Source: an uncultured bacterium
Lineage (GTDB): Bacteria > CSSED10-310 > CAZUFC01
DNA: 64,000 nt
Assembly (NCBI GenBank): GCA_964619725.1
Contig: CAZUFC010000021.1
Span: 1 to 64,000 of the forward strand
Reading direction: 5' to 3'
The notes under the pieces are model-generated. The model was not told the origin of the DNA, did no database searches, and worked only from the letters and a program-made list of their open reading frames with translations. The translations under genes were made by a program, and so were the position numbers. This document shows positions 185-51,863 of this stretch, one piece after another (the stretch's first letter is position 1; each line of letters starts with the position of its first letter).

Positions 185-210
185 TGTAACTTTTTAAAGG
201 ATGAGAAGTT
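185..210 (+). promoter_or_regulatory. Candidate ECF-sigma-dependent (autoregulatory) promoter
   Basis: TGTAAC (185-190), 16-nt spacer, AGTT (207-210) just upstream of the ECF gene and its GAGGAG RBS; fits the general ECF AAC-n16-xGT pattern. Confidence 0.45.
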
Positions 211-229
211 TTACTAATGAGGAGCGGCG

Positions 230-784
230 ATGAAACTGGGCGATGAAGAATTAATGATAATGTTTAAGTCAGGAGCAGATGAAGCTTTCGATATGCTCTA
301 TGAAAGATACAAAGAGAGAATTTACCGGTTTGCTCTGACCTCGACCAGGAGCCGTGAAGAGGCTAAGGATGTGGTTCAGGACGTATTTATGCGAGTAATT
401 ATTTCCGCATCACGCTATCAATCCCGGGGAAGATTCAAAGAATGGATTTTTCAAATAGCGGGAAATCGAATCAGAACATTGATGAAAAAAAGGAGAGATG
501 AAAAAAGCGCCCGTCCAAACGGCAAAATTGACGTAACCACCCCAATGAACAGCGAACAAGGCAATCAACTGAAAAGAATGCTGCACCTGGAGCTTCTTGG
601 GGAATCATTGAGCTGCCTGTCGGATACTCAGAGGATGATTCTTCTTTTAAAAGAAGTTGAAGGCATGGATGTGCGCAGTATAGCGAACTGCCTGGATATG
701 TCGTCTGGAAACATCAGGGTTCATTTGCACAGGGGAAGAAAAAAAATGATCGATGTTTTGAATAACCTGGAGAAAAAGCAATGA
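230..784 (+). CDS. RNA polymerase sigma-70 factor, ECF subfamily
   Basis: Region 2 (AFDMLYERY..AKDVVQDVFMRV..FKEWIFQIAGN) and region 4 (LLLKEVEGMDVRSIANCL..IRVHLHRGRKK); RBS GAGGAG. Confidence 0.93.
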   Translation: MKLGDEELMIMFKSGADEAFDMLYERYKERIYRFALTSTRSREEAKDVVQDVFMRVIISASRYQSRGRFKEWIFQIAGNRIRTLMKKRRDEKSARPNGKIDVTTPMNSEQGNQLKRMLHLELLGESLSCLSDTQRMILLLKEVEGMDVRSIANCLDMSSGNIRVHLHRGRKKMIDVLNNLEKKQ

Positions 785-1308
785 GGGAAAAAGAGGATAG
801 AGAACATTGTAGGTTAATCCAGAGATATTTAGATAATGAGCTTGATGAAATTCAAGCTGATGGGTTTGAAAAACATATGAAAGCTTGCAGGAAATGCAGG
901 AAGCGATTTGAGTCGTTTAAGCAATTGTCTGAGAGGCTCCCTGAACTTTTTGATTGCAGGCTTCCTGATGAGGTAGACCTGGAGATAAGACGGAGATTGA
1001 ATGCCGCCCTGAGCCGGTGGTCAGAGAGGGACTCCGTATTAGACCTCGAAGGTGCGGCGCGCCTGTTAAGTTTACCGGTGACCGCTCTGGCGGATATGCT
1101 GGATGAACTGCCTGCTTTTGAGGTTAACGGTCGGATAAGGTTTCTCAGGGAGCGACTTCTTGAATGGGCACGAGAGCGTGAACGCAAGCTTATGATGGAG
1201 CGGGCGGCGCATACATTCGGTTCGGAGAAAAGGTTTTTCGTTATCGAAGGGGGAGCGGAAGAACCTGATGTCGACGCTCAGGAGAATGGAATTTTATGGA
1301 AAGGATGA
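781..1308 (+). CDS. Zinc anti-sigma factor (zf-HC2) fused to an excisionase-like HTH_17 domain
   Basis: N-terminal IQRYLDNEL..HMKACRKC (HxxxCxxC); C-terminal VLDLEGAARLL..LPAFEVNGRIRFLRERLLEW; no hydrophobic TM; ATGA overlap with the sigma gene. Confidence 0.8.
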   Translation: MREKEDREHCRLIQRYLDNELDEIQADGFEKHMKACRKCRKRFESFKQLSERLPELFDCRLPDEVDLEIRRRLNAALSRWSERDSVLDLEGAARLLSLPVTALADMLDELPAFEVNGRIRFLRERLLEWARERERKLMMERAAHTFGSEKRFFVIEGGAEEPDVDAQENGILWKG

Positions 1309-1312
1309 TGTA

Positions 1313-2884
1313 ATGAATAAAGAAGAATCAAGGGAATTCACGATTGAGCTTTTTGAAAGATTAGGAAGATTGTTGACTAACGGCGCTCCATTAGTGTCTG
1401 CGATGAGAGTTCTGATGAAGGAAAGGTTTACGGAGGGGAAGGCTTCTGAGCTGATGAATTTTATGACCGACAGTATAGAATACGGCAGAACTTTTTCTGA
1501 AGCTGCAGGCGCTGTAGGGATGTTCCCGGATGAGCTTCTGACGCTGCTGGCGAATGCGGAGGAGAAGGGGCGTCTGGATGAGGTTCTTTCATCAGTGACG
1601 GACTGCATAAGAAGCGGTGATTTCGCGGTAGGATTGCCCTTGAAAACGGCGAAAATCGCTGAAAAGGCGATATCGGATGAGAGTGAAAAGGCGCCTGATC
1701 TGGTAGAGGAAATTATACGAAAAGCGTTCGGCGCCGGGGCGACGGATTTACACATTGAGCCTGATGGAGCCGGGGCCGCTATCAGGTACAGAATCGACGG
1801 AAGGCTTCATCCGCGACCGGAGAGAGTAAAGGCAGGGATATTGCGAGCTGTCGTAAGCCGTATAAAGATAATGTCGGGTATGGACGCAGCGGAGAAAAAA
1901 CTTCCTCAATCCGGGAAAATAACAGTATCGAGAAGCGAATTGGGCGGCATGGATAAAGAAAAAGGAAAAATGCATCTAAGCGTATCGATTTGTCCTTTCT
2001 TTCATGGCGAAAAAGTCGTTATCAGGTTTCTGGATCAGAATGTGTTTCCGGACAGGCTTGAAAAGATAGGATTAACGGGCGATAAACTTAAATCAGCAAA
2101 AAACTTCATCGAACGTCCGGATGGATTGCTGGTGGTCACGGGGCCTTCAGGATCAGGCAAGACGACTACACTGCTGATGCTTCTAAGCGAGACGGCAAAG
2201 CAGCAAAACAGAAACGTAATATCCCTGGAAGAACCTGTGGAGGTTCTATTGCCGGGCGTCAATCAGATGCGGATAAATCCGTCGATTGGACTTACTTTTT
2301 CATCCGCCGGCCGTTCGATATTGCGTCAGGACCCTGACGTGATATGTATCGGGGAGGTCAGAGACCCGGAGACTGCCCTTCTGATAGCGAAAATCGTGCA
2401 AACGGGACATCTGGCATTGACTCAACTGCATGCCGGAGATTGCGTATCGGCTCTTAGGCTGCTGAAAGACCTCGGTGTTCCCGCTTATTTGTTAAATGGA
2501 ATGAATATGATGATTATAGCGCAGAGACTGGTGCGTAAACTGTGCGATAAGTGCAAGAAATCGCTGTCAGCAAATGAGCGGCAAGAATTACCGGAATATC
2601 TGAAAAATTCGGAAGCGACGTTTTACAAGCCTGTGGGATGCAAGCAATGCAATAATATTGGATTCAAGGGAAGAATTCCGCTGCATGAATTCCTCGAACC
2701 TGACAATGCACTGAAGTCGCTTCTGTCGCGAAACGCTGCGGCAGATGAAATGAGAAAATCACTTCCCGATAAACATCGCTTTCTTCTTGATGACGGGATC
2801 ACTGCGGTAATGAACGGTGTAACGACTCTCTCAGAAGTTATTTATGAAACCGGGGCATTGAGTCAGACCGCCGACCGCTCTTGA
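1313..2884 (+). CDS. GspE/PilB-family secretion ATPase with an N-terminal T2SSF (GspF/PilC cytoplasmic) domain
   Basis: Walker A GPSGSGKTT, SLEEPVE, Walker B DPDVICIGEVRD, TGH..LH, CxxC..CxxC; N-terminus LGRLLTNGAPLVSAM..GRTFSEA..FP..AEEKGRLDEVL. Start moved from 1268 to ATG 1313 (AAGGA RBS, no overlap with the upstream gene). Confidence 0.85.
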   Translation: MNKEESREFTIELFERLGRLLTNGAPLVSAMRVLMKERFTEGKASELMNFMTDSIEYGRTFSEAAGAVGMFPDELLTLLANAEEKGRLDEVLSSVTDCIRSGDFAVGLPLKTAKIAEKAISDESEKAPDLVEEIIRKAFGAGATDLHIEPDGAGAAIRYRIDGRLHPRPERVKAGILRAVVSRIKIMSGMDAAEKKLPQSGKITVSRSELGGMDKEKGKMHLSVSICPFFHGEKVVIRFLDQNVFPDRLEKIGLTGDKLKSAKNFIERPDGLLVVTGPSGSGKTTTLLMLLSETAKQQNRNVISLEEPVEVLLPGVNQMRINPSIGLTFSSAGRSILRQDPDVICIGEVRDPETALLIAKIVQTGHLALTQLHAGDCVSALRLLKDLGVPAYLLNGMNMMIIAQRLVRKLCDKCKKSLSANERQELPEYLKNSEATFYKPVGCKQCNNIGFKGRIPLHEFLEPDNALKSLLSRNAAADEMRKSLPDKHRFLLDDGITAVMNGVTTLSEVIYETGALSQTADRS

Positions 2885-3211: not shown

Positions 3212-4852
3212 ATGATTGTCCGCCGACGAAATGAACGTGCAAGGGTAAAATATTTGGAATATGAAAGTAAATCAAAGGAAGAGTTGATATCCGATATCAG
3301 AGCGCTTATGAAGCGTCTGGAAACTTTTGAGTTATCGGCTCAGCTTTTCGGGCATCCAGATGATCCTTCCCTAAATGAAAGCGACCGGATGCAGGGATTA
3401 AACGGCATTCTTAACGCCATTAACGACGGCGTTTTCATATTGAATGAAAAGGGCGATTTTACTTTCATCAATGAGGTGATTGAAAAGCGTTCAGGGATTC
3501 CAGGCCGGGAATTTACTCAATTAAATTTCATGGATGTCGTGATTCCGGAAGAAAGGCCGAAGATAGAGGAAAAATTTAAACGGTTAATGGCCGGAGAAGA
3601 TGTGGGGCCGTACGATCTCACTTACAAGACCGTCAAGGGTGAGAATATGCTTGTCGAGATCAACTGCAAACAGCTTTACAGGAACGGCAGGATCGTGGGA
3701 ATGCTCGGAATTTCCCGCGACGTGACCGCAAAGCGCAGAGCCTTGAAAGCATTGAATCAGGAGCGTAAGCAATTGTTGTCGATCTTCGACAGTATAGACG
3801 AGCCGATTTATGTGAGCGATCCGCAGGATTTTGAGATACTTTATGCGAATAAGGCATTGCAGAAAGTGGTGGGCGATGCTGTCGGACGTAAATGCTATAA
3901 AGCGCTCCAGGGCCTGGATGCTCCATGTTCTTTCTGCACGAATAAATATATTTTCGGGGAAAACCGGAGCGAGGTATATATTTGGGAATTCCGGAATAAA
4001 ATCAATAACCGGTGGTATCACTGCATAGACAGGGCGATAAAGTGGCCGGACGGTCGTGAGGTGAGATACGAAATGGCGATCGACATAACGGACAGGGTAA
4101 CTGCAGAGGAGGAATTGTGTCGAGCTTACGAGCAGATGGAGGATAGGGTAAGGCAGAGGACGGAGGAGCTGGAAAATGCTGTAAAGGATTTAAAATCTTT
4201 CACTTACACGGTTTCCCACGATCTCCGGTCACCACTAAGAAGCATACACGGGTATTCGGAAATGCTTCTGCAGGACCATTCTGAAAAGCTTGACGGGAAA
4301 AGTGAAATTTATCTGACCCAGATAAATAATGAAGCAGTCAGAATGGGGCAGCTTATAGACGACCTGTTGACTTTTTCCAGGCTGGGCCGTCAGGAATTAA
4401 TCATGACGAATATCGATATGGATAAACTTCTGGAAATTGTTCTGAAAGAGACAACTCAGCATGCAAATACCAAAAATGCAATATTTGAATGCAGTAAATT
4501 GCCTCGCGCCTTAGGGGATCAGTCCCTGATAAGGCAGGTCCTGGTTAACCTGATTTCCAATGCTCTGAAGTTTTCCGGCAAGGAGCAGAAATCCATCATA
4601 AAAATTAAAGGTCATGCTGAACGGGATCAAAACGTTTATTCCGTTGAAGACAACGGTGTGGGATTCGACATGATATATGCGGATCGTTTGTTTCAAGTTT
4701 TCTATCGATTGCATCCTCAAACAGAGTTCGCGGGTACGGGCGTAGGACTGGCGATAATAAAAAGGATAATCGAAAAGCACAAAGGTCAGGTCTGGGCAGA
4801 GTCTGAACCGGGCAAAGGGGCCATTTTTTATTTTACTCTTCCGACTTTTTAA
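3212..4852 (+). CDS. Cytoplasmic PAS-PAS sensor histidine kinase
   Basis: Two PAS domains; H-box TVSHDLRSPL; NLISNALKF, DNGVGFD, GTGVGL boxes. The true start may be the TTG at 3254. Confidence 0.92.
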   Translation: MIVRRRNERARVKYLEYESKSKEELISDIRALMKRLETFELSAQLFGHPDDPSLNESDRMQGLNGILNAINDGVFILNEKGDFTFINEVIEKRSGIPGREFTQLNFMDVVIPEERPKIEEKFKRLMAGEDVGPYDLTYKTVKGENMLVEINCKQLYRNGRIVGMLGISRDVTAKRRALKALNQERKQLLSIFDSIDEPIYVSDPQDFEILYANKALQKVVGDAVGRKCYKALQGLDAPCSFCTNKYIFGENRSEVYIWEFRNKINNRWYHCIDRAIKWPDGREVRYEMAIDITDRVTAEEELCRAYEQMEDRVRQRTEELENAVKDLKSFTYTVSHDLRSPLRSIHGYSEMLLQDHSEKLDGKSEIYLTQINNEAVRMGQLIDDLLTFSRLGRQELIMTNIDMDKLLEIVLKETTQHANTKNAIFECSKLPRALGDQSLIRQVLVNLISNALKFSGKEQKSIIKIKGHAERDQNVYSVEDNGVGFDMIYADRLFQVFYRLHPQTEFAGTGVGLAIIKRIIEKHKGQVWAESEPGKGAIFYFTLPTF

Positions 4853-4982: not shown

Positions 4983-6134
4983 CTAGTCAGCGTCCCGAAG
5001 CGCCGGGATGGAGAAAACGAACCGACTTCCCTGTCCTTGAGGACCGTCTTCGACGTAAATGTATCCCCCGTGTGATTCTACGGCCATGCGGCAGAATGCC
5101 AGCCCGAGTCCTGCTCCTTTCCTGGCGCCTTTTCGTCCCGGCAGATGCGTAAACTTCTCGAATATCCTTTTTCTTTCGTCCGGAGGAACGCCAGGCCCTT
5201 TGTCCATTACGTGAAACTCGACGTAATCGTTTTTATCTGAGGCTTCAATGACGATATTTTCACCGGTCGGAGTATATTTTGCGGCATTGTCCAGCAGGTT
5301 GAACAGTATTCGTTGAAGTATTTCCTGATCGGCCTTAATGCGGGGCAGATTTTCCGGAATTTCAGTACGAACGGATATTTCATCGTCCTCCAGCAGTATT
5401 GACTCATCTTCGATGACCTGATCGATTATTTCTTTAACCGCGATAGGCTGAAGGTCCAAATGCATTTTCCCTTCTTCAAAGCGGGCCATCTGCAGGAGCG
5501 TCTCCACGAGCCTCAACATTCGTTTTACGGACCGTTCGATAGTTCCAAAGAGTTCATCAGTTTCGTCGGTTTGATTTTCCGAAGGCATCAGATGTTTGAG
5601 TATGGAAAGGCTGCCGGAAATCAAACCTAAAGGGTTCTTGAGATCATGCACGATCATGTCGGCCAGTTCTTCCCTTAGCCTCAGCATTTCTTTCAGACGT
5701 TCCTTTTCCGTATACAGGGCTTTTACTCGACCTTGAGCCAGCACGAAGGAGCGCCCCAGGCTTATACGCGATACGTCTGATTCTGAAAGTCGATCCATAA
5801 GGCGAAACACCAGGGTTATCGCTAGTTCGGGATTCTCATTTAGGGCTTTCCTGAACTGTTCCTTCGGCAGCATAAAGATGTTCGATTTTTCTTTCGCCAT
5901 AACGGTAATCGAACGTACGTGCCCCGGTCTGACCGCGGGTTCTCCGACGATTTCTCCCGGCATGATGTCGGAAAGGTAATGAAATGTGTTCTTCTCTTCC
6001 CGATACATCCCCAAACGGCCGCTTTCCAGGTAGTATATCGAATCGCCCATCGTTCCTTGTCGTATTATAACTTCACCGGGCGCTACGGTAAGGGATTTTC
6101 CGAATTTCTTGAGAGCTTGCGTGAATTTGTTCAT
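4983..6134 (-). CDS. cNMP-binding-domain histidine kinase
   Basis: N-terminal CNB (GEVIIRQG..PGEIVGE..RSITVMA); H-box VHDLKNPL; NLLDNAAKY, DKGPG, GAGLGLAFC. Confidence 0.9.
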   Translation of the reverse strand: MNKFTQALKKFGKSLTVAPGEVIIRQGTMGDSIYYLESGRLGMYREEKNTFHYLSDIMPGEIVGEPAVRPGHVRSITVMAKEKSNIFMLPKEQFRKALNENPELAITLVFRLMDRLSESDVSRISLGRSFVLAQGRVKALYTEKERLKEMLRLREELADMIVHDLKNPLGLISGSLSILKHLMPSENQTDETDELFGTIERSVKRMLRLVETLLQMARFEEGKMHLDLQPIAVKEIIDQVIEDESILLEDDEISVRTEIPENLPRIKADQEILQRILFNLLDNAAKYTPTGENIVIEASDKNDYVEFHVMDKGPGVPPDERKRIFEKFTHLPGRKGARKGAGLGLAFCRMAVESHGGYIYVEDGPQGQGSRFVFSIPALRDAD

Positions 6135-6710: not shown

Positions 6711-9700
6711 TCAGGATAAAACAGCCCTTTCCGAATTAATCGATTGATAAAGTTGTTTGAGATATTCAGCAGGTTCGCAATCCAGTTCCTTGCGCAGGAA
6801 TTCAGCGAATTGATGATAGGCGGCTACGGCAGCGGATGAATGACCTGATTGTGCATGAGCCTTCATTATGACGGCAACGACGTCGTCATTAAGGGGGTCG
6901 ATGTTGTGGATGAGTTCGGCGACTTTGAGAGCATCGTGCGTGAATCCGGCTTTAAGCGCTTTTTCAGCAAGCGTCAGTCCTGTGTTGGCGAATTCCAGGT
7001 TAAACCGGGTACGATAAGGTTCTATCCAGGATTCATATCTGTCTTCGGAGAGAAATTCTCCCTGGAACAGTTCGGCGGCGTCTTTAAATTTCCTGTAGCC
7101 GGAAACGGGGTCACCCTGTTCCAGAGCGCTTTTGACGGACTGGATTCTATTCTCGAACATGGTGTAATCGACTTTGGAATTTTCCGGCAGAAGAAAAGTG
7201 TAGTGGTGATCGCAGTTAAGGATATAGGGTGACTGAGCGTAACTGGAGAGTTTGGGCTGAAGGGCTCGCTTAATGTAATAAATGGCGTTTCTGAGTTTAT
7301 TGTAGCCCTGTTTCAGATCGGAATCCGGCCATATGATGTCAATAAGCACTTCTTTGTGAACAGGTTTTCTTCTGTTTATAAGCAGATACTTGAATATGCT
7401 CTTGGCCTTGGCGGTCACCCACATCGAATTTTCAATGGGCTTGTCTGAATCGCCGATCCATACCTGGAATTTCCCAAAACATTTTATCTTTAGCGGCTTA
7501 ATCGATTCAGCCCGGTCCCGGACTAAGATTTCGTTCGCTGCTTTTTTTACGGATGGGGCTCCTTCAGATGCTAAATGTCGTATCGCTGGATAGAGGTCAT
7601 CCAGTTTCCCCAGATTCTCCAACGCAGCAAGAGCCGCCTTTTGTATACGTTGATTTTTATGAGCCAATAGTTCGCTGAGGAACTTCCTGTTTTTCAACTG
7701 AAGAAGAAGACCGGCGGCATAATCCGTTTCAATGTCCTTCTCCAGGGCCCTGACCAGGATTAGGGAGCTTCGTGTGCCGGAACCGGCGGTGAATATGTGA
7801 TGAAAACCGTGCATGCGGGTTAGCTCAAGACATTTTTTCATGTATTTTTTCAGTCCAGGTTCGGCATTCTCATTCATACAATTCACGGCCAGGAGATAAT
7901 ATATTGATGCGACCATAAGATAGTTCTCTCGTTTTTTGAAAATATCGAGGCTTTGGAGCAGCCTTTTTTCTGTTTCCGCCGGATTTTTATGAAAATCTAT
8001 CGTTGTTCTGGCTTTGGCATAAAGGGCCATACCGAGGTATTCGTCATTTCCTGACTGTTCTGCTGAACGGAGATATTCATCAGCATAAAAAAGCGCCGAA
8101 GCTTCTTCTTTCGTATGTTTAAAGTAGTTCTGCATGCCTGACAGATAAAGGACTTTAGGGCGGGAGAAAGGCCTGGGGCTGAGACGCTTTTTCATCCGGT
8201 TCAGCAGCGAGAAAGCCTCGGCGGACATATTTTTTTTCAACGCGATAAGGACAAGCGAATAAAGCGATTCGAACCAATATGGTTTCGATCCGTATTTTAC
8301 AGCCAGTTCCAGGACTTTTTCGAATTTATTTTCAGCTTCGTTGAGTCTCCCCATATCGCGAAAAGCGACTCCTGCCGTTGAGAGGCAATCGCAGAGCATA
8401 TCGATACGGCCGAATTTTTCAAATATCGGCGCCAGAGATTCACATTGCCTTACGACGATTTCATTTTGTCCCGCTTCGGCATGACAGAGTTTGACGATAT
8501 CCATGGATGTTTTGGCATAGTCCAGTTTATCATTCGTTTGCAGGGCGAATTTCAGGTTTTTCTCCAGTATTCTTTTTTTATCCGAGATGCTGCAACCAGC
8601 GGCAGGGCATAGACATTGAAGCGTTTCGAGGAACAAGGAAGATTTGGTTACCTTATCGCCGGCGATTTCCAGCGCTTTACTGCACAATTCGGTCAGTTCA
8701 TCATATTGCAGAGTGTATTGATAAGAGTATCCTTTCAGGGCATAGGCGTTCAGCATACCTTCAACGTTGTTCTGATTTTTGAAAGTATCCAAAGCTCTAT
8801 CGATGAGTTTACGGGCTTGATCCAGATCGTCGTTCCGAATGAGCGCTCTGGCTTTTACAAGGAGAATATCCGGAAGACATTTCAAATTTTCCTCTGGAAG
8901 TTCAGCGCATATATTCTGCAGCCGGTTAATGCCGAAACATTTCAACTCATTGACGGAATAACCGTTAAAGACATCTGCAGCCTCAGAAAGCATACCGGCT
9001 TTAATAAAGTGCTCGGCGGAAAGAGACGGGTTCTTTTTTTTCCTGAACATCAGAGCCGCTTTCCGGTGCAGTTTTTGAACATGGGAATTTGAGGTTTGTT
9101 TTTTCAGGAGGTTATAAGCGTTTGTGCGCAAAAAGTCATGATAGCGATATTCAAGCGGCTGGGATGAAACTTTGAAAGTCAGGAGATTATTGTTTGCCAG
9201 TTGTTCCAGTAGATCATGGCTGTCGTTTCTGTTCAGTATTTCATTCAGCTCGTCAGGAATCAGAGGATCGAAAAGAGAAGAAGTGAGGACGAAATCTTTC
9301 AGATTCTGAGGAAATCCGTTGAATGTTTCTTCCAGAACATAGGAGGATATTTGCATTTCATCATTGCCTGGCAATAGGTTGTCCAGGTATTCCGACGGAT
9401 TGGAAATCGTTTCCATTCGTTCCAGCAGGAGCATAATCAGACCTGCGTATCCCCTGGAAATTTGATGGAGCCGGTTGGCTTTGAGCCTATGAGGTTGAGG
9501 GACATTTCTGAGTGAAAGCAGCATCTTTATGTCTGTTTTTGTGAGGATGAGGTCATTGTCGAATATTTCGTTCAACCATTGCCTGGATCGGTTTAGAGAA
9601 ATGTTCTTGAACGAAAAACTGCGTCTGTTGCTTATAATGAGGTGCCCGTCTGGGGGGAAAAGACCGACGATACGATCCATCAGTTCACTAATGCGTTCAT

Positions 9701-10211
9701 TGTTCTCGACTTTATGGAAATCTTCTATTACGAGCAGGAAAGAAGGCAATGAAGCGAGGATGTCCGCCAATAATCCGCCGATGAGTTCAATATTGTCTTC
9801 CAGGTTGAACATAGTGATCATGTAGCGGGATAAAACGTCCGAAGATAAGGGATTTTTTTGCCGCACGGCCTTAAGGATAAGATAAATGAAACGGAGAAGT
9901 TCATTATCTTTCTCGTCCAGGTTAATCCAGTAGATGTCTCTATCAATCGATCCGATCAGCCGGGTGAGGAAAACCGACTTACCGGCTCCTGCACCGGCGG
10001 AAATCAGCGTTGCTTTGCGGTGCAGATTCTTTAATATTTTTTCAGTCGGCTTCGGGCGCTCTATTACGTTTTTGAGAGAATCGATTGAGGGAGGTGAAAT
10101 TTTAGCGGCGGGAATGATGAAAAACTCTTTTTTTATCTGACCGGTTTGCATGAGAATCCCATTCTGCCTCACGTAGGCTTCAATATATGTATTATAAGCA
10201 TTTGGATTCAA
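6711..10211 (-). CDS. Large MalT-like STAND/TPR regulator with C-terminal SARP (wHTH + BTAD) domain
   Basis: IERP..AGAGAGKS P-loop, LVIEDFH, YRYHDFLR, TPR-like helices, then IKCFGKFQV..LIDIIWPD..LFQGEFL..W..DPLND..ELDCEP. Start may be ATG 10151. Confidence 0.88.
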   Translation of the reverse strand: MNPNAYNTYIEAYVRQNGILMQTGQIKKEFFIIPAAKISPPSIDSLKNVIERPKPTEKILKNLHRKATLISAGAGAGKSVFLTRLIGSIDRDIYWINLDEKDNELLRFIYLILKAVRQKNPLSSDVLSRYMITMFNLEDNIELIGGLLADILASLPSFLLVIEDFHKVENNERISELMDRIVGLFPPDGHLIISNRRSFSFKNISLNRSRQWLNEIFDNDLILTKTDIKMLLSLRNVPQPHRLKANRLHQISRGYAGLIMLLLERMETISNPSEYLDNLLPGNDEMQISSYVLEETFNGFPQNLKDFVLTSSLFDPLIPDELNEILNRNDSHDLLEQLANNNLLTFKVSSQPLEYRYHDFLRTNAYNLLKKQTSNSHVQKLHRKAALMFRKKKNPSLSAEHFIKAGMLSEAADVFNGYSVNELKCFGINRLQNICAELPEENLKCLPDILLVKARALIRNDDLDQARKLIDRALDTFKNQNNVEGMLNAYALKGYSYQYTLQYDELTELCSKALEIAGDKVTKSSLFLETLQCLCPAAGCSISDKKRILEKNLKFALQTNDKLDYAKTSMDIVKLCHAEAGQNEIVVRQCESLAPIFEKFGRIDMLCDCLSTAGVAFRDMGRLNEAENKFEKVLELAVKYGSKPYWFESLYSLVLIALKKNMSAEAFSLLNRMKKRLSPRPFSRPKVLYLSGMQNYFKHTKEEASALFYADEYLRSAEQSGNDEYLGMALYAKARTTIDFHKNPAETEKRLLQSLDIFKKRENYLMVASIYYLLAVNCMNENAEPGLKKYMKKCLELTRMHGFHHIFTAGSGTRSSLILVRALEKDIETDYAAGLLLQLKNRKFLSELLAHKNQRIQKAALAALENLGKLDDLYPAIRHLASEGAPSVKKAANEILVRDRAESIKPLKIKCFGKFQVWIGDSDKPIENSMWVTAKAKSIFKYLLINRRKPVHKEVLIDIIWPDSDLKQGYNKLRNAIYYIKRALQPKLSSYAQSPYILNCDHHYTFLLPENSKVDYTMFENRIQSVKSALEQGDPVSGYRKFKDAAELFQGEFLSEDRYESWIEPYRTRFNLEFANTGLTLAEKALKAGFTHDALKVAELIHNIDPLNDDVVAVIMKAHAQSGHSSAAVAAYHQFAEFLRKELDCEPAEYLKQLYQSINSERAVLS

Positions 10212-12593: not shown

Positions 12594-13299
12594 AATTGAT
12601 GAATTATTGAAATCAGTTGAAGGCGGACATGTGCTGGATGTTGCCGTCGGCAAGGGAGAGTTCATAGCTTACATAAAAAAATTTAAACGGCTGGAAAAAA
12701 TAACGGCAGTCGATCTGAGTGAAAAATGCGGCGAATTGCTCGATAAAAATTACCCGGAAACAGAGGTGAATTTCATCATCATGGATGCCGCTGTCTTGGG
12801 TTTTCCGGATGATACATTCGATACGGTCTGTTTTTCTAATTCTCTTCATCATCTTCCGAATGTCAGTTCGACCCTGCTGGAGCTGAAGCGCGTTCTCAAG
12901 AAGGGGGGAACTTTTATAGTCAGAGAAATGTATTCTGATTTTACGAGTGAAGCCCAAAAAACTCACGTCATGCTTCATCACTGGATCGCTGATGTAGATC
13001 GAAGGCACGGAAGAATTCACAATTACACCTTCAAAAAACGACGTATCCGCGATATGCTCCTCGCTATGAATTTTTCGGATGTAGAGATAATTGAATATGA
13101 TTCTACTTTCGATAATCCGAAAGATGAGAATATGATTTCTCAATTGACTGCATCATGCCGTGCGGTAATGAAAAACATTTCAGAGCAATTTCCGGTTTGC
13201 GAAGAACTGAAAGATCAGGGAAACCGGATCATTTCACGATTGAAAGCAAAGGTGAGCGGCATTGATGGTCGTTCGTCGACAAGGAAATCGGAAGCGTGA
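12586..13299 (+). CDS. Class I SAM-dependent methyltransferase
   Basis: VLDVAVGKG motif I, AVDLS, MDAAVLGFPDDTFDTV..SLHHL..RVLKKGG. Confidence 0.88.
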   Translation: MDKIDELLKSVEGGHVLDVAVGKGEFIAYIKKFKRLEKITAVDLSEKCGELLDKNYPETEVNFIIMDAAVLGFPDDTFDTVCFSNSLHHLPNVSSTLLELKRVLKKGGTFIVREMYSDFTSEAQKTHVMLHHWIADVDRRHGRIHNYTFKKRRIRDMLLAMNFSDVEIIEYDSTFDNPKDENMISQLTASCRAVMKNISEQFPVCEELKDQGNRIISRLKAKVSGIDGRSSTRKSEA

Positions 13300-13835
13300 T
13301 GAGCCGGTTGAAACAGAGAAAATTTAAAAAACTGATAAATCAGTACAAGGATTTGATTTTCAATCAGGCGTATTATGTTCTGGGCAATCATGCCGATGCC
13401 TGCGACATCAGTCAGGAAGTGATGCTCAAGTTCTGGCAGAATATGGACGATGTAAACAGGAAAGCCGTAAAAGTGTGGTTGATCAAAACAACAAAAAATG
13501 CCTGCATAGACCTGATAAGGAGAAACAAAGAATGGGCATCCCCCTCAGACAGGTTTGAAGAAGGGGGCGGCGGTCTCGGTCCGTTAAAGACTGATGAAAG
13601 CGCGAACCCGGAACGGTTGACTATAACGCAGGATTTGAAGAAACATCTTCATCGGGCCATAGGATTATTGCCGCCCAAGTTGAGAACGGCCATAGTATTG
13701 AGAGAGATACAGGATTTAAAATACGAGGAGATAGCTCAGGCGATGGAAGAGCCGGTCAACACCGTGAAAAGCCATATTCACCGCGGTAGAAAAATGCTTT
13801 TTGAGATGTTACAATATGAGAGAAGAGGGAGGTAA
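13296..13835 (+). CDS. RNA polymerase sigma-70 factor, ECF subfamily (SigW/RpoE-like)
   Basis: ACDISQEVMLK..WLIKTTKNACID; LREIQDLKYEEIA..VNTVKSHIHRGR. Confidence 0.92.
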   Translation: MMSRLKQRKFKKLINQYKDLIFNQAYYVLGNHADACDISQEVMLKFWQNMDDVNRKAVKVWLIKTTKNACIDLIRRNKEWASPSDRFEEGGGGLGPLKTDESANPERLTITQDLKKHLHRAIGLLPPKLRTAIVLREIQDLKYEEIAQAMEEPVNTVKSHIHRGRKMLFEMLQYERRGR

Positions 13836-13842
13836 GGCGGTG

Positions 13843-14388
13843 ATGATGCGAGATTGCGGACATATAAAAGATTTGTTTTTTAAGGACGATCTTTCGCAAA
13901 AAGAAAAAAGCGACTTGCAGCGACATCTGGAGGATTGCGCAGACTGCCGGGAACAGTATGAAGAATATCGCGTCATGATCGATTCGCTTCACGGCATGGA
14001 AGTAAAAAAATGTCCGGAAGAAGTTGCTGACAGGGCATTCAAAATAACTGCAGCCGAGAGTAAAAACCGGGAGGGAATCGGTTCAAAATTTGCCGACCTG
14101 CTCTCTTTTAATTCGAGGAACCTGTCGATGACTTTCTCTGCAATCGCGGCAATTCTGATAATCATTATGATTATTCCTGTCGTTAAGGACAGATACTTCA
14201 ACAAGCCTCCCTACACTCAAGAAGAACTGCATCAAGGAATTAAGCAGGTTAAAATGCTGTTGGGCTACATCAAGCATGTGAATCAGAAAGCCCAGGACAA
14301 ATTTGAGGAAAAAGCTCTGAAAGAGGGCATAGCAAAACCGATGAATTATTCCGCTAAAGCCCTGGACGATGTTTTCGAACCGGGATAA
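13843..14388 (+). CDS. Membrane-anchored zinc anti-sigma factor (zf-HC2)
   Basis: HLEDCADC motif, one TM (FSAIAAILIIIMIIPVV); start reset downstream of GGAGGT (GTG 13840 also possible). Confidence 0.85.
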   Translation: MMRDCGHIKDLFFKDDLSQKEKSDLQRHLEDCADCREQYEEYRVMIDSLHGMEVKKCPEEVADRAFKITAAESKNREGIGSKFADLLSFNSRNLSMTFSAIAAILIIIMIIPVVKDRYFNKPPYTQEELHQGIKQVKMLLGYIKHVNQKAQDKFEEKALKEGIAKPMNYSAKALDDVFEPG

Positions 14389-26715: not shown

Positions 26716-28005
26716 ATGAAAATAAAAAAAGAAAAAAATGAAAACGACGACTTTAAAACAATAACAAAGAAGATTGAGAATTCAGGGAATAAAAAAGTTG
26801 TTATCTTTTCGCATGATGATCCTGACGGAATAACTAGCGCCATAATGTTGAATCGCCTGTTGAAAAAAATCGGGGCTGTGGTGGAAGTTAAATTCCCCGA
26901 AGGTTTTGTATTGACGAGTGAGCAGGCGGCAGAAATGGGTGAGAATACGGATTTAATGTTCATATTGGATAAAGGGACATTCAAGTCTTACGATCAATTT
27001 TCCGGGTCTGCAAAAAAGGTGATTATTATAGATCATCATCCGCCGGGAGATTTGCCTGAAAAAGCGTTGTTTTATAATCCGTCGAAGTATGAATATACTC
27101 GATGTTCCAATTCGGCAGTGATTCGGCGTTTTATAGAAACGATAAATACGGCGGACGTCTGGGATGATTTTTACAGTTTGATGGGACTGACGGGCGATTT
27201 TGCGGTTAACTCTGTAACGGAAGAATATGCTGAATTTGATAGTGAATTCGTGAAGCGGATGCGGGAAAATTTTAAAAATTTATTTCAGCCGACCGTCCAG
27301 CGTCCGACTATGTTTGAAGTTGAGCAGCGGGAAAAGACGAGTCTGCTGCATCAATTGACGGAGGTTGTTCATGCTGTGAGCGGCGGAGGATTCCAGTTTT
27401 TTTATTCCGAGCGTGATCCCCGACTGCAGGATATTGATCCGCCAACCTACATATTCAAGCAATTGAGCAGTTTGATGAATTCCGGCGAAGACCCCAAATC
27501 ATGGGAATCGGTTGATCAGTTTATCGCTGCCTTACCGAATCCTGAACCGGGTCGTCTTATGTATGATTTTTACCTTCAGGATTGGGATTATTACAGCCAG
27601 TTGATTGATGCCGTTATTCCGCTTGCGAAGATCAGGGATGAGGAGATTTTTCTTTTCTGCTGCGAAAACTTCAAGTTGGGGCCGATGATAGCTCCGGTGA
27701 AGCTGCATGAACTGCATCGGAACAGGCAATTCAAAGAAGCTTTGATCATCATGTATAACATCAAAGCCGATCAGGATCGTTTTTCATTCCGGACATTCCC
27801 GGGCTCTAAAACTGTAGATGCGGACCTGCTGGCCAGGCAGTTGACGCAAAATCTTAAACAGATCGATTCTTCGGGTAATATTGCAGGAGGAGGGCATCCG
27901 GTAGCTTCGGAATGCACTGTCGTTTCCGATAAGCTTACTCCTAAAGACACATTGAAGGCATTGTTTGAAGAGATAGAGAAGTTAAAAAGCGCATTAGAAA
28001 AATAA
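26716..28005 (+). CDS. DHH/DHHA1-family phosphoesterase
   Basis: HDDPDG, ILDKG, IIDHH, GLTGD and C-terminal AGGGHPVAS. Confidence 0.88.
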   Translation: MKIKKEKNENDDFKTITKKIENSGNKKVVIFSHDDPDGITSAIMLNRLLKKIGAVVEVKFPEGFVLTSEQAAEMGENTDLMFILDKGTFKSYDQFSGSAKKVIIIDHHPPGDLPEKALFYNPSKYEYTRCSNSAVIRRFIETINTADVWDDFYSLMGLTGDFAVNSVTEEYAEFDSEFVKRMRENFKNLFQPTVQRPTMFEVEQREKTSLLHQLTEVVHAVSGGGFQFFYSERDPRLQDIDPPTYIFKQLSSLMNSGEDPKSWESVDQFIAALPNPEPGRLMYDFYLQDWDYYSQLIDAVIPLAKIRDEEIFLFCCENFKLGPMIAPVKLHELHRNRQFKEALIIMYNIKADQDRFSFRTFPGSKTVDADLLARQLTQNLKQIDSSGNIAGGGHPVASECTVVSDKLTPKDTLKALFEEIEKLKSALEK

Positions 28006-28081
28006 AGAAAATTTTAAAAAGCATCAGACGATTCTACAGCAATTTGTCGGATGGCGAACCAGAAAGTGATGAGGTTGAACG

Positions 28082-28489
28082 ATGACATGGAGCGAATCTG
28101 ATTTTCCAAAACTTTTGGATGAGTTTTTGCGAATAATAAAAAGCGATCATTCAAATTCGTTTAAAACAGGATATATTGAACTGGCCCTGAATTGGCAAAA
28201 CATTGCGCCGATTTATCCTGCGATTATTTCCGAGGTGGCGGCTAAAGCTGAAAAGCATGTTAGTGTCAATGATTTGAAGAAGGGGTGTATCGTTTCCGTA
28301 AAAAGGGGAGATGTCAAGATCACGGGTAAGTTTGAAGGTCTGGAAGAGGGTAAGATGAAATTATCTGAGGTTACTGAAGAGAAGCGTCATGATTCTTATT
28401 TTGTCGATGCGGACGACGACGTTTTGATGTTGGACAGGGATGCATTTTATGAAGATTGGTCCACTCTCGAACCCAAAGAAATAGAATAG
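28082..28489 (+). CDS. Hypothetical protein, possible Sm/SH3-like beta-barrel
   Basis: GAGGT RBS, operonic position; segment LKKGCIVSVKRGDVKITGKFEGLEEGKMKLSEV has an Sm1-like pattern (fold is inference). Confidence 0.7.
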   Translation: MTWSESDFPKLLDEFLRIIKSDHSNSFKTGYIELALNWQNIAPIYPAIISEVAAKAEKHVSVNDLKKGCIVSVKRGDVKITGKFEGLEEGKMKLSEVTEEKRHDSYFVDADDDVLMLDRDAFYEDWSTLEPKEIE

Positions 28490-28512
28490 TGAAAGCAGAT
28501 GGTGTGAATACA

Positions 28513-29754
28513 ATGAACAAAAAATATTTAAAACAGATTAAAGGCCCTGCGGAAATAGAAATACTCAAAGGAAAAGTTGAGATAATAGGATATCCTCATG
28601 AGCGCGGATACCGCTTATCGATTCCCCCCGGAAAATCAATCCCGTTAGCGCTGGATTCAGAAGATCAGATAAGATGCGAAACGGAAAACGAAGAGAACAT
28701 AACGAATTTAAAGAGTTTTACTATTCCCCAGACCTGGCTTGAGATAGTAAAACGGATAAAAGAGCAGAAGCTTCGCAAGATATTGGTATTAGGCGAAATG
28801 GACACGGGAAAATCGTTTTTTTGTACCTATCTGGCCAATTCTCTGCTCTATTCGGGGCTGGAACCTGGAATTCTGGATTGCGATCTGGGGCAATCGGATA
28901 TCGGACCTCCCGGAACTCTCGGTTTCCTGAAAGTCGTCCGTCCCCTGACTTTTATTAATGAATCAGACCCGACGCTCCTGGGCTTCATCGGCGCTCATTC
29001 TGCCGGTTTGCACATGCTAAAGGTCATAACGAGTTTTCACGGGTTGGTGACCAAGGCCATGAAGATGTGCAGTACGCTGATCGTCAATACTTCAGGCTGG
29101 GTCAACGAAAGCGGAAGGGCTTTAAAATGGGCGAAAATAGAATTTATGGACCCGGATTTAACTGTCTTTCTGCAGAGGGAAAACGAGTTGGAGCACCTTT
29201 ATAAAATGGTTCCAGAGGAGAAAGCCTTCAAACTGCATGTAAAAATCAAAAAAGGTTTAATCGCTACCAAGGCGGAAAGAAAAAATCTCAGAGAAACGGC
29301 ATCCAAAGCTTACTTCAAAGATAGCGGGGAAAAGAGCTTTTCCTTTTCAGAGTTTACTGCGGTCGGAGCTTTTTTAGGGTCCGGAACCTTTCGAAGCGAT
29401 CTTGAGAGGCGGCCGGAAATAGTTCATGCTGAAATACTGCCGAGTTTCGAAGGCGCTTATATCGTGGTGAAAAAGGATACGGACCCGGAAACGATCCAGA
29501 AAATCAAAAAAGAATTCAGGACGACCAAGGTAATTGAAGAAGGATACGAAAAGGGGACGCTGATAGGGCTGGCGAACTCGCAAAACGTATGTTCAGCTTT
29601 GGGCATAATAAAGAAAATTGACTGGAACGCCAAGGTTCTGCATTGCGTTACTCCTTTGAAAAGCTCTGAACCTATAAAATTTGTTCATTTCGGTTCTTTG
29701 AAATACAATTTTGCAGGTGAAGAAGCAGGCTTCCTGGCTCCGGGTTCCATTTGA
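28513..29754 (+). CDS. Clp1/Grc3/Nol9-family polynucleotide 5'-hydroxyl kinase
   Basis: Walker A GEMDTGKS, DCDLGQSDIGPPG, VNTSGWV, lid ERKNLRE; N-terminal KGPAEIEILKGKVEIIG domain. Start reset to ATG 28513. Confidence 0.88.
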   Translation: MNKKYLKQIKGPAEIEILKGKVEIIGYPHERGYRLSIPPGKSIPLALDSEDQIRCETENEENITNLKSFTIPQTWLEIVKRIKEQKLRKILVLGEMDTGKSFFCTYLANSLLYSGLEPGILDCDLGQSDIGPPGTLGFLKVVRPLTFINESDPTLLGFIGAHSAGLHMLKVITSFHGLVTKAMKMCSTLIVNTSGWVNESGRALKWAKIEFMDPDLTVFLQRENELEHLYKMVPEEKAFKLHVKIKKGLIATKAERKNLRETASKAYFKDSGEKSFSFSEFTAVGAFLGSGTFRSDLERRPEIVHAEILPSFEGAYIVVKKDTDPETIQKIKKEFRTTKVIEEGYEKGTLIGLANSQNVCSALGIIKKIDWNAKVLHCVTPLKSSEPIKFVHFGSLKYNFAGEEAGFLAPGSI

Positions 29755-51122: not shown

Positions 51123-51863
51123 TCACATCGGCGCCGACGGCAAATCGAAGGTCGAAAAATTCCACGGCGGCCAGGGCGTCGTGATCACGAAGGACCTTAT
51201 TCCCTTCGACTTGAATTCCTGCTCCAGCGATTCTACGAAATTTTGAGCATCCTGCTTCCGGCATAATATGTTTATATTCCCCATTACCTGACCGCCGGAC
51301 TTCGAAAAATCCCAGTTGAAATCAACCAGCTTTCCGTTGCCCGCCTTCCGGATTACAGGCAACAAATTCTTTAATCCCGAATCGCTGCCTGATTCCCTCC
51401 CTTCATGTGACTTCAAATATAAAGTCCCGGGACCGAATCTCAATGATATGTCGCGGGATGATGAGGAATCCGCAAATAAAAATGAATCCCCGTTCATACG
51501 GCCTAAACGTATCTTTATCCCGAACTCCACCATGCCGTGCAAACGGTCCAGACTCTCCTGGATTATCTCGCTCTGATGCTTCAACGTCTCACGCAATGAA
51601 GACGATGAACCGAATTTTAATCCGAATCGTACCGGTATCATCTCGTTCGTCTGATTAAATATCTCTCGAACAACTCGATGATGCTGAAACTCCGCCATCG
51701 AATTATCCGGGTCCAACTCCTCCTCGGTATGCTCGGAAACAATCGCCTGAAAACGGTCAACTGATACTGATACTACTCGCCTGTTCGCTATACCCGTTAT
51801 TGCGCCGTTTTTCATCGGAAATGCTCGCGTTATCCCGTAAAGGTGTATCCATAGCCCGCCCAT
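51123..51863 (-). CDS. GvpL/GvpF-family protein
   Basis: LYGIT..GI..AIVSE..HHRVV..IPVRFG..L.G.VEFGIK..GTLYL..PWPPWNF. Confidence 0.82.
   Translation of the reverse strand: MGGLWIHLYGITRAFPMKNGAITGIANRRVVSVSVDRFQAIVSEHTEEELDPDNSMAEFQHHRVVREIFNQTNEMIPVRFGLKFGSSSSLRETLKHQSEIIQESLDRLHGMVEFGIKIRLGRMNGDSFLFADSSSSRDISLRFGPGTLYLKSHEGRESGSDSGLKNLLPVIRKAGNGKLVDFNWDFSKSGGQVMGNINILCRKQDAQNFVESLEQEFKSKGIRSFVITTPWPPWNFSTFDLPSAPM

Follow-up and report, generated by a model that had tools for sequence, protein, structure and literature searches.

An ECF sigma factor, a putative winged-helix anti-sigma factor and a soluble GspE-type ATPase form a conserved three-gene module

Three soluble proteins are encoded behind one ECF-type promoter

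We analyzed a 64,000-nucleotide (nt) stretch of DNA, hereafter the window, that begins at base 1 of a contig (C21; CAZUFC010000021.1) from an uncultured bacterium of the CSSED10-310 lineage. Three plus-strand genes at positions 230-2884 are the subject of this study: they encode a sigma factor of the extracytoplasmic function (ECF) type, a soluble anti-sigma factor, and an ATPase of the GspE type with a GspF domain (Table 1). The source genome (G000) is a metagenome-assembled genome (MAG) of 9.17 Mb in 344 contigs, 90.9% complete and with 6.5% contamination; because the window starts where the contig does, DNA 5' of the promoter is out of view. Four DNA sequencing runs, all from one microbial-mat study, contain the stretch, and no RNA sequencing run containing it was among the matches listed. 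Throughout, G denotes genomes, L loci, and P database proteins; the second phylum is that of locus L052, labeled Planctomycetota.

Table 1. Features of the sigma, anti-sigma and ATPase genes, with positions in the window (aa, amino acids; AF2, AlphaFold2; TM, transmembrane)
Feature	Position	Strand	Evidence
ECF-type promoter: -35 TGTAAC (185-190), 17-nt spacer, -10-like GTTTTAC (208-214)	185-214	+	read from sequence
ECF (group 4) sigma factor, 184 aa	230-784	+	Pfam, NCBIfam
Anti-sigma gene, whole (soluble, 175 aa)	781-1308	+	zf-HC2; no TM segment; orthologs in 7/14 CSSED10-310 genomes
Anti-sigma domain, aa 1-80, four helices, C10 and H32-x3-C36-x2-C39	781-1020	+	AF2, alignment
Excisionase-like winged helix, aa 86-148, signature (L/I/V)PxFE and GR(I/L)RFRR	1036-1224	+	AF2, Foldseek
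Soluble GspF-domain/GspE-type ATPase, 523 aa, whole gene	1313-2884	+	Pfam T2SSF and T2SSE; AF2 mean pLDDT 78.8; family alignments
Six-helix bundle, aa 3-100, one GspF/PilC cytoplasmic domain without membrane helices	1319-1612	+	T2SSF, PDB sequence matches, AF2
GspE/PilB-type N2 and catalytic domains, aa 127-510	1691-2842	+	T2SSE, Foldseek
Walker A GPSGSGKTT, aa 277-285	2141-2167	+	alignments

The three genes are tightly coupled. The anti-sigma ATG (781-783) overlaps the sigma TGA (782-784) as ATGA, and the ATPase ATG, at 1313, follows a 4-nt gap (1309-1312) after the anti-sigma stop; a longer ATPase frame from 1268 is possible, but alignments with relatives favor the start at 1313. Of the 14 loci measured, 12 have junctions that overlap or leave gaps no wider than 22 nt. 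All three proteins are soluble, with maximum 19-residue Kyte-Doolittle means of 0.89 (sigma), 1.23 (anti-sigma), and 1.13 (ATPase). The Shine-Dalgarno-like GGAGG of the ATPase gene sits within the C-terminal FPGG codons of the anti-sigma gene. The same coincidence of C-terminal FPGG with the GGAGG of the ATPase gene is seen in several anti-sigma orthologs (window 1270-1312; L040, L042, L045), and apparent protein conservation there may thus be a nucleotide constraint.

A preliminary description, made from the letters alone, had reported the ATGA overlap and 4-nt gap, an ECF-like promoter, an ECF sigma factor followed by a zf-HC2 anti-sigma with a Xis-like domain and a soluble T2SSF-T2SSE chimera, and an absence of pilus and secretion genes from the window. 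Open reading frame (ORF) coordinates bear out the coupling; the promoter is found as TGTAAC-N17-GTTTTAC, with similar promoters in 18 readable loci; and Pfam, AF2, and hydrophobicity agree with the anatomy. A Pfam scan (E ≤ 1e-5) covered 42 further ORFs out of 51 that do not overlap and measure 80 aa or more, leaving out six short ones (84-120 aa), and likewise confirmed that the window holds no pilin, secretin, or other family belonging to a type II secretion system (T2SS) or type IV pilus (T4P). The description also named independent transcription of the ATPase as a result that would count against it; no separate sigma-70-like plus-strand promoter matched inside 230-2884, where there is no room for one.

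The product of the first gene has the layout of an ECF group 4 sigma factor: only the sigma-2 and sigma-4 regions are present. Pfam detected Sigma70_r2 (2.5e-15, aa 23-89), Sigma70_r4_2 (1.3e-12, aa 121-173), and Sigma70_ECF (1.5e-6), and gave no match to region 3 or region 1.1. The protein scores 94.7 bits against the NCBIfam superfamily model TIGR02937 (cut-off 42.9), no NCBIfam equivalog reaches its cut-off, and orthologs are 38-51% identical.

The promoter is conserved with the gene. GTTTTAC ends 15 nt 5' of the sigma ATG in the window, and an ECF-type promoter lies 5' of the sigma gene in all 18 loci with readable upstream DNA. All nine loci first compared have TG(T/A)AAC, a spacer of 18-19 nt, and a (G)T-T/A-rich-AC element directly 5' of the sigma start. 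Nine second-phylum loci, read by eye (a regular expression caught three of them), have (T)GAAAC(A), about 16-19 nt, and GTT(T), with GAAAC in nine and TGAAAC in eight. The strict 12-base pattern occurs only six times on both strands of the 9.17-Mb genome, so its occurrence at this exact site is not chance. The AAC motif at -35, together with the ATGA-coupled zf-HC2 protein, is typical of ECF factors with a co-transcribed anti-sigma and suggests autoregulation.

The order of the three genes is conserved across genomes

Sigma factor, middle protein, and ATPase follow one another in this order in 19 of the 19 genomes whose context was examined, from at least two phyla: seven of 14 CSSED10-310 genomes, 11 of 301 genomes sampled from the second phylum, and one other (G042). 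The preliminary description had named dispersal of the homologs in other genomes as the outcome that would speak against a module; the homologs are co-located in every case.

Within CSSED10-310 the association is exact. The first 146 ATPase residues, compared with 41 genomes, recovered fusion-type frames in G000 and in six of 13 other CSSED10-310 genomes and none in 27 more distant genomes, where the matches were ordinary PilC-like frames of about 400 aa. In the six relatives the sigma factor is likewise followed by a zf-HC2/HTH_17 protein and then by the fusion ATPase, between unrelated flanks (the ATPase of G011 is cut by a contig end). An anti-sigma profile matched seven of the 14 CSSED10-310 genomes, exactly the seven with the fusion ATPase. 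Scanning genome contigs with a sigma alignment gave 20 loci: the top eight have the module (six CSSED10-310 loci, L052, and L053, from an unclassified MAG), and the other 12, more distant ECF genes, are without it.

The second phylum separates the module from ordinary anti-sigma factors. Against its 301 genomes the anti-sigma profile gave 11 strong matches that run through the winged helix, all 11 with an ECF sigma gene upstream and a T2SSE-type gene downstream. Among the other 19 loci in this phylum, 17 match in the zinc-motif half only and are ordinary anti-sigmas, 15 of them beside an ECF sigma gene and none with an ATPase; the remaining two, L162 and L175, match in the winged helix only, with no sigma or ATPase gene within about 1.5 kb. 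Ten further anti-sigma matches in this phylum, including G049, stand outside these locus counts. In the phylum of L053, one of 301 genomes matched, L053's own.

These distributions bear on the possibility that there is no functional link at all, the ATPase gene being a GspE paralog that landed by chance behind an ECF pair, or a product of assembly or annotation. The source MAG is in 344 contigs with 6.5% contamination and many T2SSE paralogs, and the locus lies at a contig end, all of which would suit such an explanation. It is nevertheless extremely improbable: all 19 genomes examined, which come from independent assemblies and span at least two phyla, share the gene order, the fused architecture recurs in independent database proteins, and the junctions overlap.

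Some candidates from these searches were rejected. A 633-aa frame in G002, considered as a fusion without an anti-sigma, belongs to an ordinary PilB-PilT-PilC-PilS-PilR locus; L076, considered as a full-coverage fusion, resolves into two separate genes, GspE and then GspF; and a metagenome scan with the ATPase alignment was dominated by generic GspE/PilB, with no fusion among the 80 loci kept.

The genes around the module are not part of this conservation. The flanks of the 18 other modules hold no pilin, secretin, or PilM/N/O gene, and their gene content varies from genus to genus; neither a recombinase nor a mobile element was found among the window ORFs scanned and the module flanks, and PADLOC returned P-loop noise only. 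In G003 and G008 (L043:8887-12582, L044:1563-5312) the gene just upstream of the sigma gene encodes a Ser/Thr protein kinase with AAA_16 and TPR domains fused to it, and in G254 (L187:4442-6244) such a kinase gene lies about 1.5 kb upstream; at three of 19 genomes, this may be coincidence.

The family is larger than the genomes sampled. A word-indexed search found nine fusion ATPases (P0002-P0006, P0010-P0012, P0098) amid generic GspE. The anti-sigma profile matched 143 proteins at E ≤ 1e-3, most with zf-HC2 and HTH_17 and 150-170 aa long; among the matches listed (120 of the 143) few are named, mostly as “hypothetical protein,” and in some sources the name is “excisionase family DNA binding protein.” In a representative library of 1.84 billion proteins (50% identity) the profile had 410 matches at E ≤ 1e-10 and 28 at E ≤ 1e-30; among the best 150 of the 410, most are 120-200 aa with the match running through the winged helix. 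The nearest ESM Atlas cluster has 109 members with zf-HC2 and HTH_17, commonest in Planctomycetota. Long metagenomic proteins (P0007-P0009, P0013, and P0014; 680-905 aa), considered as anti-sigma fusions, are tandem double GspE-type ATPases and were rejected.

The middle protein joins a zinc-type anti-sigma domain to an acidic winged helix

The N-terminal half of the middle protein resembles known anti-sigma factors. Pfam matched zf-HC2 (6.4e-7, 29.8 bits against a cut-off of 22.2), and NCBIfam gave a weak match to the RsrA model (2.2e-4; 21 bits, cut-off 62.5). In the AF2 model, whose mean predicted local distance difference test score (pLDDT) is 74.5, helices span residues 2-17, 23-35, 37-57, and 63-80. 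C10, H32, C36, and C39 are invariant in seven of seven CSSED10-310 orthologs. The H-x3-C-x2-C motif and an upstream cysteine in a four-helix domain are the features of class I, zinc-associated anti-sigma (ZAS) factors, and a member of that class would be predicted to bind and inhibit its sigma factor and to bind zinc or sense redox state.

The C-terminal half is a winged helix. HTH_17 scores 1.3e-3 and 19.4 bits on the window protein, under its 27-bit cut-off, and passes the cut-off in orthologs from G008 (32.6 bits), G072 (35.4), and G071 (34.2). AF2 models residues 86-148 with a pLDDT of about 90 as beta-alpha-alpha-beta-beta followed by a helix, with a disordered tail thereafter. Foldseek returned partial matches, all at E > 0.07, to RdfS (8dgl), Pukovnik Xis (4j2n), BldC (6ama), and the gpNu1 DNA-binding domain; template-modeling scores normalized to the target were 0.67-0.77 for RdfS, Xis, and 6hn7, with probabilities of 0.97-1.0.

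No other part of the middle protein is conserved as well as the winged helix, which is kept where the zinc motif has been lost. Its (L/I/V)PxFE signature is present in 18 of the 19 module proteins, and HxxxCxxC in 14. The zf-HC2 match is absent, leaving the winged helix alone, in L052, G285, G254, and G310, and the G072 protein has a zf-HC2 match without the strict zinc motif.

In charge this domain is set apart from its structural relatives. Taking net charge as a proxy for the DNA-reading surface, we found -6 to 0 in the 19 module copies, whereas seven ordinary HTH_17 proteins of G000 have +1 to +8 in the segments that match. The second helix, which reads DNA in HTH_17 proteins, is acidic and hydrophobic in the module proteins. 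These values count against a dual-function middle protein, in which the winged helix would bind DNA and the ATPase would act on DNA or nucleoprotein, in the way that small helix-turn-helix subunits recruit motor ATPases. In favor of such a role are the fold, which matches excisionases, BldC, and the gpNu1 DNA-binding domain, the conservation of the wing arginines, and the naming of some relatives as excisionase-family DNA-binding proteins; on the other side stand the acidic second helix in all 19 copies, the weakness and partial extent of the Foldseek matches, and the fact that, to our knowledge, ATPases of the GspE/PilB clade are not DNA motors. We consider this dual role improbable, and the label “Xis fusion” used in the preliminary description should not be taken to mean DNA-binding or excisionase activity.

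The ATPase is a distinct branch of the GspE/PilB family without its docking domain

The third protein joins a piece of a secretion platform to a secretion motor. T2SSF matches at 5.3e-11 (43 bits against a cut-off of 25.2), with aa 15-99 covering profile positions 3-88 of 125, the soluble part, and T2SSE matches aa 127-510 at 1.9e-97. The bundle has sequence matches in the PDB to PilC (3jc8, 1.4e-5; 2whn, 0.0078), EpsF (2vma/3c1q, 0.015), and TcpE (4hhx, 0.052); AF2 models it (aa 3-100) with a pLDDT of about 90, followed by a linker and then by the N2 and catalytic domains, for which Foldseek matched PilF (5oiu), PilB (5zfr/5tsh), and GspE (4pht/4ksr) at E of about 1e-28 and 31-35% identity. 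Besides Walker A, the protein keeps intact the Asp box EEPVE, Walker B RQDPDVICIGEVRD, the His box, and two CxxC pairs. An ordinary locus has its platform gene downstream of the one for the ATPase, whereas T2SSF is N-terminal in the fusion, which is therefore not a simple read-through of neighboring genes.

The protein departs from the working members of both families. In GspE and PilB ATPases the N1/MshEN domain docks the enzyme to GspL or PilM. The window ATPase has no Pfam match to this domain (T2SSE_N, PF05157); the fusion family is without it, and generic relatives carry it. Where that domain would stand, the window protein has a cytoplasmic domain of the very platform that such enzymes ordinarily drive. 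NCBIfam equivalog scores are not reached (GspE, 366.9 against 630.25; PilB, 340.9 against 675.65). Three of the four defining features of a working GspE/PilB are thus missing: the N1/MshEN domain, an equivalog score, and a pilus or secretion gene context. The N-terminal domain likewise lacks the membrane features of a platform protein, having one T2SSF repeat and no hydrophobic segment.

In a quick IQ-TREE analysis of 55 rows, 21 of 22 module ATPases form one clade within GspE/PilB (support of 97 in the Shimodaira-Hasegawa-like approximate likelihood ratio test, SH-aLRT) relative to 33 other GspE/PilB sequences, ten of them G000 paralogs; G285, G254, G011 (truncated), and L052 (in-frame stop) were left out. 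The single-T2SSF, CSSED10-310-type ATPases are a subclade with a support of 100.

The family varies in both of its halves. T2SSF was not detected in three of the 19 genomes, and there is one domain in 11 and two in five; within the second phylum there are two in five genomes, one in three, and none detected in three. The window copy and all CSSED10-310 copies have every catalytic motif intact (Walker A and B, Asp box, His box, and tetracysteine). Of the second-phylum genomes, G331, G310, and G254 have a degenerate Walker A or His box, and the 587-aa protein of G285 has a partial T2SSE match only.

The proteins at L182, L187, L188, and L183 (genomes G331, G254, G310, and G285) are probably pseudo-ATPases, still paired with a sigma factor and a winged-helix partner. 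The ATPase gene at L052:5922-7421 has one in-frame stop, which may mark a pseudogene or an assembly error; the L052 middle protein is without the zinc motif.

The module resembles known systems in its parts

ECF sigma/anti-sigma pairs are among the main bacterial signaling devices; regulated proteolysis, partner switching, redox sensing, and phosphorylation are known as their inputs, as are fused C-terminal domains, among others. SigR-RsrA exemplifies an ECF sigma factor held by a soluble zinc-binding, class I anti-sigma. The module shares with ZAS class I systems, as set out in PMC7406223, a two-domain sigma factor, a co-transcribed soluble anti-sigma with Cys/His-x3-Cys-x2-Cys in a four-helix domain, an AAC-type -35 element, and likely autoregulation. 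Unlike them, it has an extra C-terminal winged helix on the anti-sigma and a GspE-type ATPase as an obligate third gene.

The other parts compare in the same way. The N2 and catalytic fold of the ATPase, with all its motifs, is that of GspE/PilB (4ksr, 4pht, 5tsh, 5zfr, 5oiu); unlike those enzymes, the module ATPase lacks N1/MshEN, scores below equivalog level, falls in a separate clade, and lies away from pilins, secretin, and PilM/N/O but always beside a sigma/anti-sigma pair. Its six-helix domain resembles the T2SSF cytoplasmic domains of GspF/PilC/TcpE platforms (2whn, 2vma/3c1q, 4hhx, PilC in 3jc8); platforms, however, have two T2SSF repeats and three membrane helices in about 400 aa, whereas the window protein has a single domain, no membrane helices, and an N-terminal fusion to the ATPase. 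Residues 86-148 of the anti-sigma share the fold of excisionase/HTH_17 proteins (RdfS 8dgl, Pukovnik Xis 4j2n, BldC 6ama), but are acidic rather than basic and are fused to an anti-sigma domain.

Two systems tie sigma activity to a secretion-type ATPase or apparatus. The anti-sigma FlgM, which acts on sigma-28, is exported by the flagellar apparatus, and SpoIIIA, with its GspE-like ATPase, is reported to be required for sigma-G activity in Bacillus subtilis (PMC2703783). By analogy they suggest a possible mechanism, not a family relationship: both are complete membrane machines, whereas the module ATPase is soluble and alone, with an ECF anti-sigma bearing a winged helix as its partner.

The preliminary description knew of no system with this layout, and our literature searches agree: we found no description of an ECF operon that includes a GspE-type ATPase, nor of a T2SSF-T2SSE fusion or a zf-HC2/HTH_17 anti-sigma, although the planctomycete ECF groups (Jogler et al., 2012) might bear on novelty. 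The main text of the ECF reclassification (PMC7826278), with the portion of its supplement that we covered, contains no T2SSE, HTH_17, or excisionase, and its one T2SSF passage concerns a different, Tad-pilus context. We conclude that the parts come from known families, and that what is new, and undescribed in the literature searched, is the obligate third component in an ECF sigma/anti-sigma system.

A possible cytoplasmic signaling unit

We suggest, tentatively and as a reading that may well be right while falling somewhat short of probable, that this operon is an autoregulated, self-contained cytoplasmic ECF signaling unit in which the ATPase modulates the anti-sigma, and not a part of a pilus or secretion system. 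The sigma factor would transcribe its own operon from TGTAAC-N17-GTTTTAC, and the N-terminal domain of the anti-sigma would hold the sigma factor. The acidic winged helix would serve as a handle rather than as a reader of DNA, and the ATPase would bind it, probably with the platform-like domain; how much sigma factor is released would then depend on the nucleotide state of an ATPase hexamer or on its conformational cycle. The ATPase would thus be an input to the switch or a modulator of it, not merely an output.

The preliminary description had left two roles for the ATPase, tuning a remote pilus or T2SS and remodeling the anti-sigma. Indirect evidence leans towards the latter, because the winged helix and the ATPase co-occur in all 19 genomes examined, because the winged helix is acidic, and because the ATPases of some relatives are degenerate. 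A signaling unit is further favored by the shared order, close junctions, and conserved promoter of the three genes, by a winged helix kept more faithfully than the zinc motif, and by an ATPase that has no membrane-docking domain and forms its own lineage. That the module is retained despite degenerate ATPases is easier to reconcile with binding or regulation than with the work of a pilus motor. Complex prediction for the full-length ATPase with the full-length anti-sigma scored 0.00 against a mark of 0.32, without controls, and carries no weight either way.

The strongest alternative concerns the direction of the signal. If the anti-sigma were an RsrA-like redox or thiol switch, the ATPase would be the main product under its control, a membrane-free competitor or accessory that tunes a remote T4P or T2SS while the sigma factor is active; it might titrate PilM/GspL or PilB/PilT partners, for example, or present its platform domain as a decoy. 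The invariance of Cys/His-x3-Cys-x2-Cys in seven of seven CSSED10-310 copies and the weak RsrA match agree with this, as do the intact catalytic motifs of the window ATPase; ECF operons often include their own targets (PMC7826278); and the machines to be tuned exist elsewhere in G000, which has 27 T2SSE, 17 T2SSF, 19 N_methyl, and seven secretin matches, all but the module's own on other contigs. Such an output role, however, leaves the universally kept acidic winged helix unexplained. The module also persists in the five of 19 copies that lack the zinc motif, and in copies whose ATPase motifs are degenerate, the ATPase has no N1/MshEN docking domain, and a pilus gene is adjacent in none of the 19 genomes. 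We regard it as somewhat unlikely.

Several observations weigh against the signaling unit that we favor. About 72% of soluble class I anti-sigmas carry a zinc motif (PMC7406223); a soluble anti-sigma with a zinc motif can be a complete redox sensor, and the ATPase may then be a mere co-transcribed output. T2SSF cannot be the universal contact with the anti-sigma, as the number of these domains varies. The retained wing arginines (GRIRFRR) make some DNA contact possible. The G071 module ATPase falls outside the clade, on a long branch in this quick-method tree. Among longer proteins we found none that fuses the anti-sigma or the winged helix to an ATPase or another domain, which is weak evidence. 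Finally, a regulon search in G000 gave six strict matches, about the number expected by chance on a rough estimate, and 116 loose matches, 22 of them before ORFs, with nothing coherent among them; the pattern matches at chance level and cannot serve to delimit a regulon.

In a bolder version, which we regard as doubtful, the ATPase would be a “motor plus rotor” chimera free of the membrane, with its origin in the T4P/T2SS engine, that has come to work as a cytoplasmic switch: its ATP-driven conformational cycle would seize or release the acidic winged-helix handle of the anti-sigma and in this way set sigma activity, and where Walker A has decayed it would act as a pure scaffold. This would make it a new class of ECF signal transduction.

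If the signaling unit is real, a hexameric secretion-type ATPase as a fixed third partner would be a mechanistically different ECF input, and would provide a clear case of a pilus or secretion motor reused away from the membrane. With three soluble proteins and one promoter, the module is small enough to be directly testable in a heterologous host. Module ATPases are currently labeled GspE, PilB, or TadA, and recognizing the family would improve annotation.

Neighboring genes in the window

The genes directly downstream of the module encode a PAS-PAS histidine kinase (3212-4852), a cyclic-nucleotide-binding histidine kinase (4983-6134, minus strand), and a 1166-aa TPR/BTAD regulator (6711-10211, minus strand). 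These genes are not conserved beside the module in other genomes. A lone gas-vesicle gene of the GvpL/GvpF family lies at 51123-51863 (minus strand); the window showed no further gvp gene. Positions 13296-14388 hold a second ECF sigma gene (179 aa) that overlaps a 195-aa ORF without a Pfam match, likely an anti-sigma; the pair is preceded by a methyltransferase gene and by a gene for a 747-aa protein with a weak Peptidase_C13 match. Three ORFs stand in a row at 26716-29754, one for a DHH-family protein, one of 135 aa, and one for a CLP1_P (Clp1-type P-loop) protein, and may constitute an RNA-end processing set.

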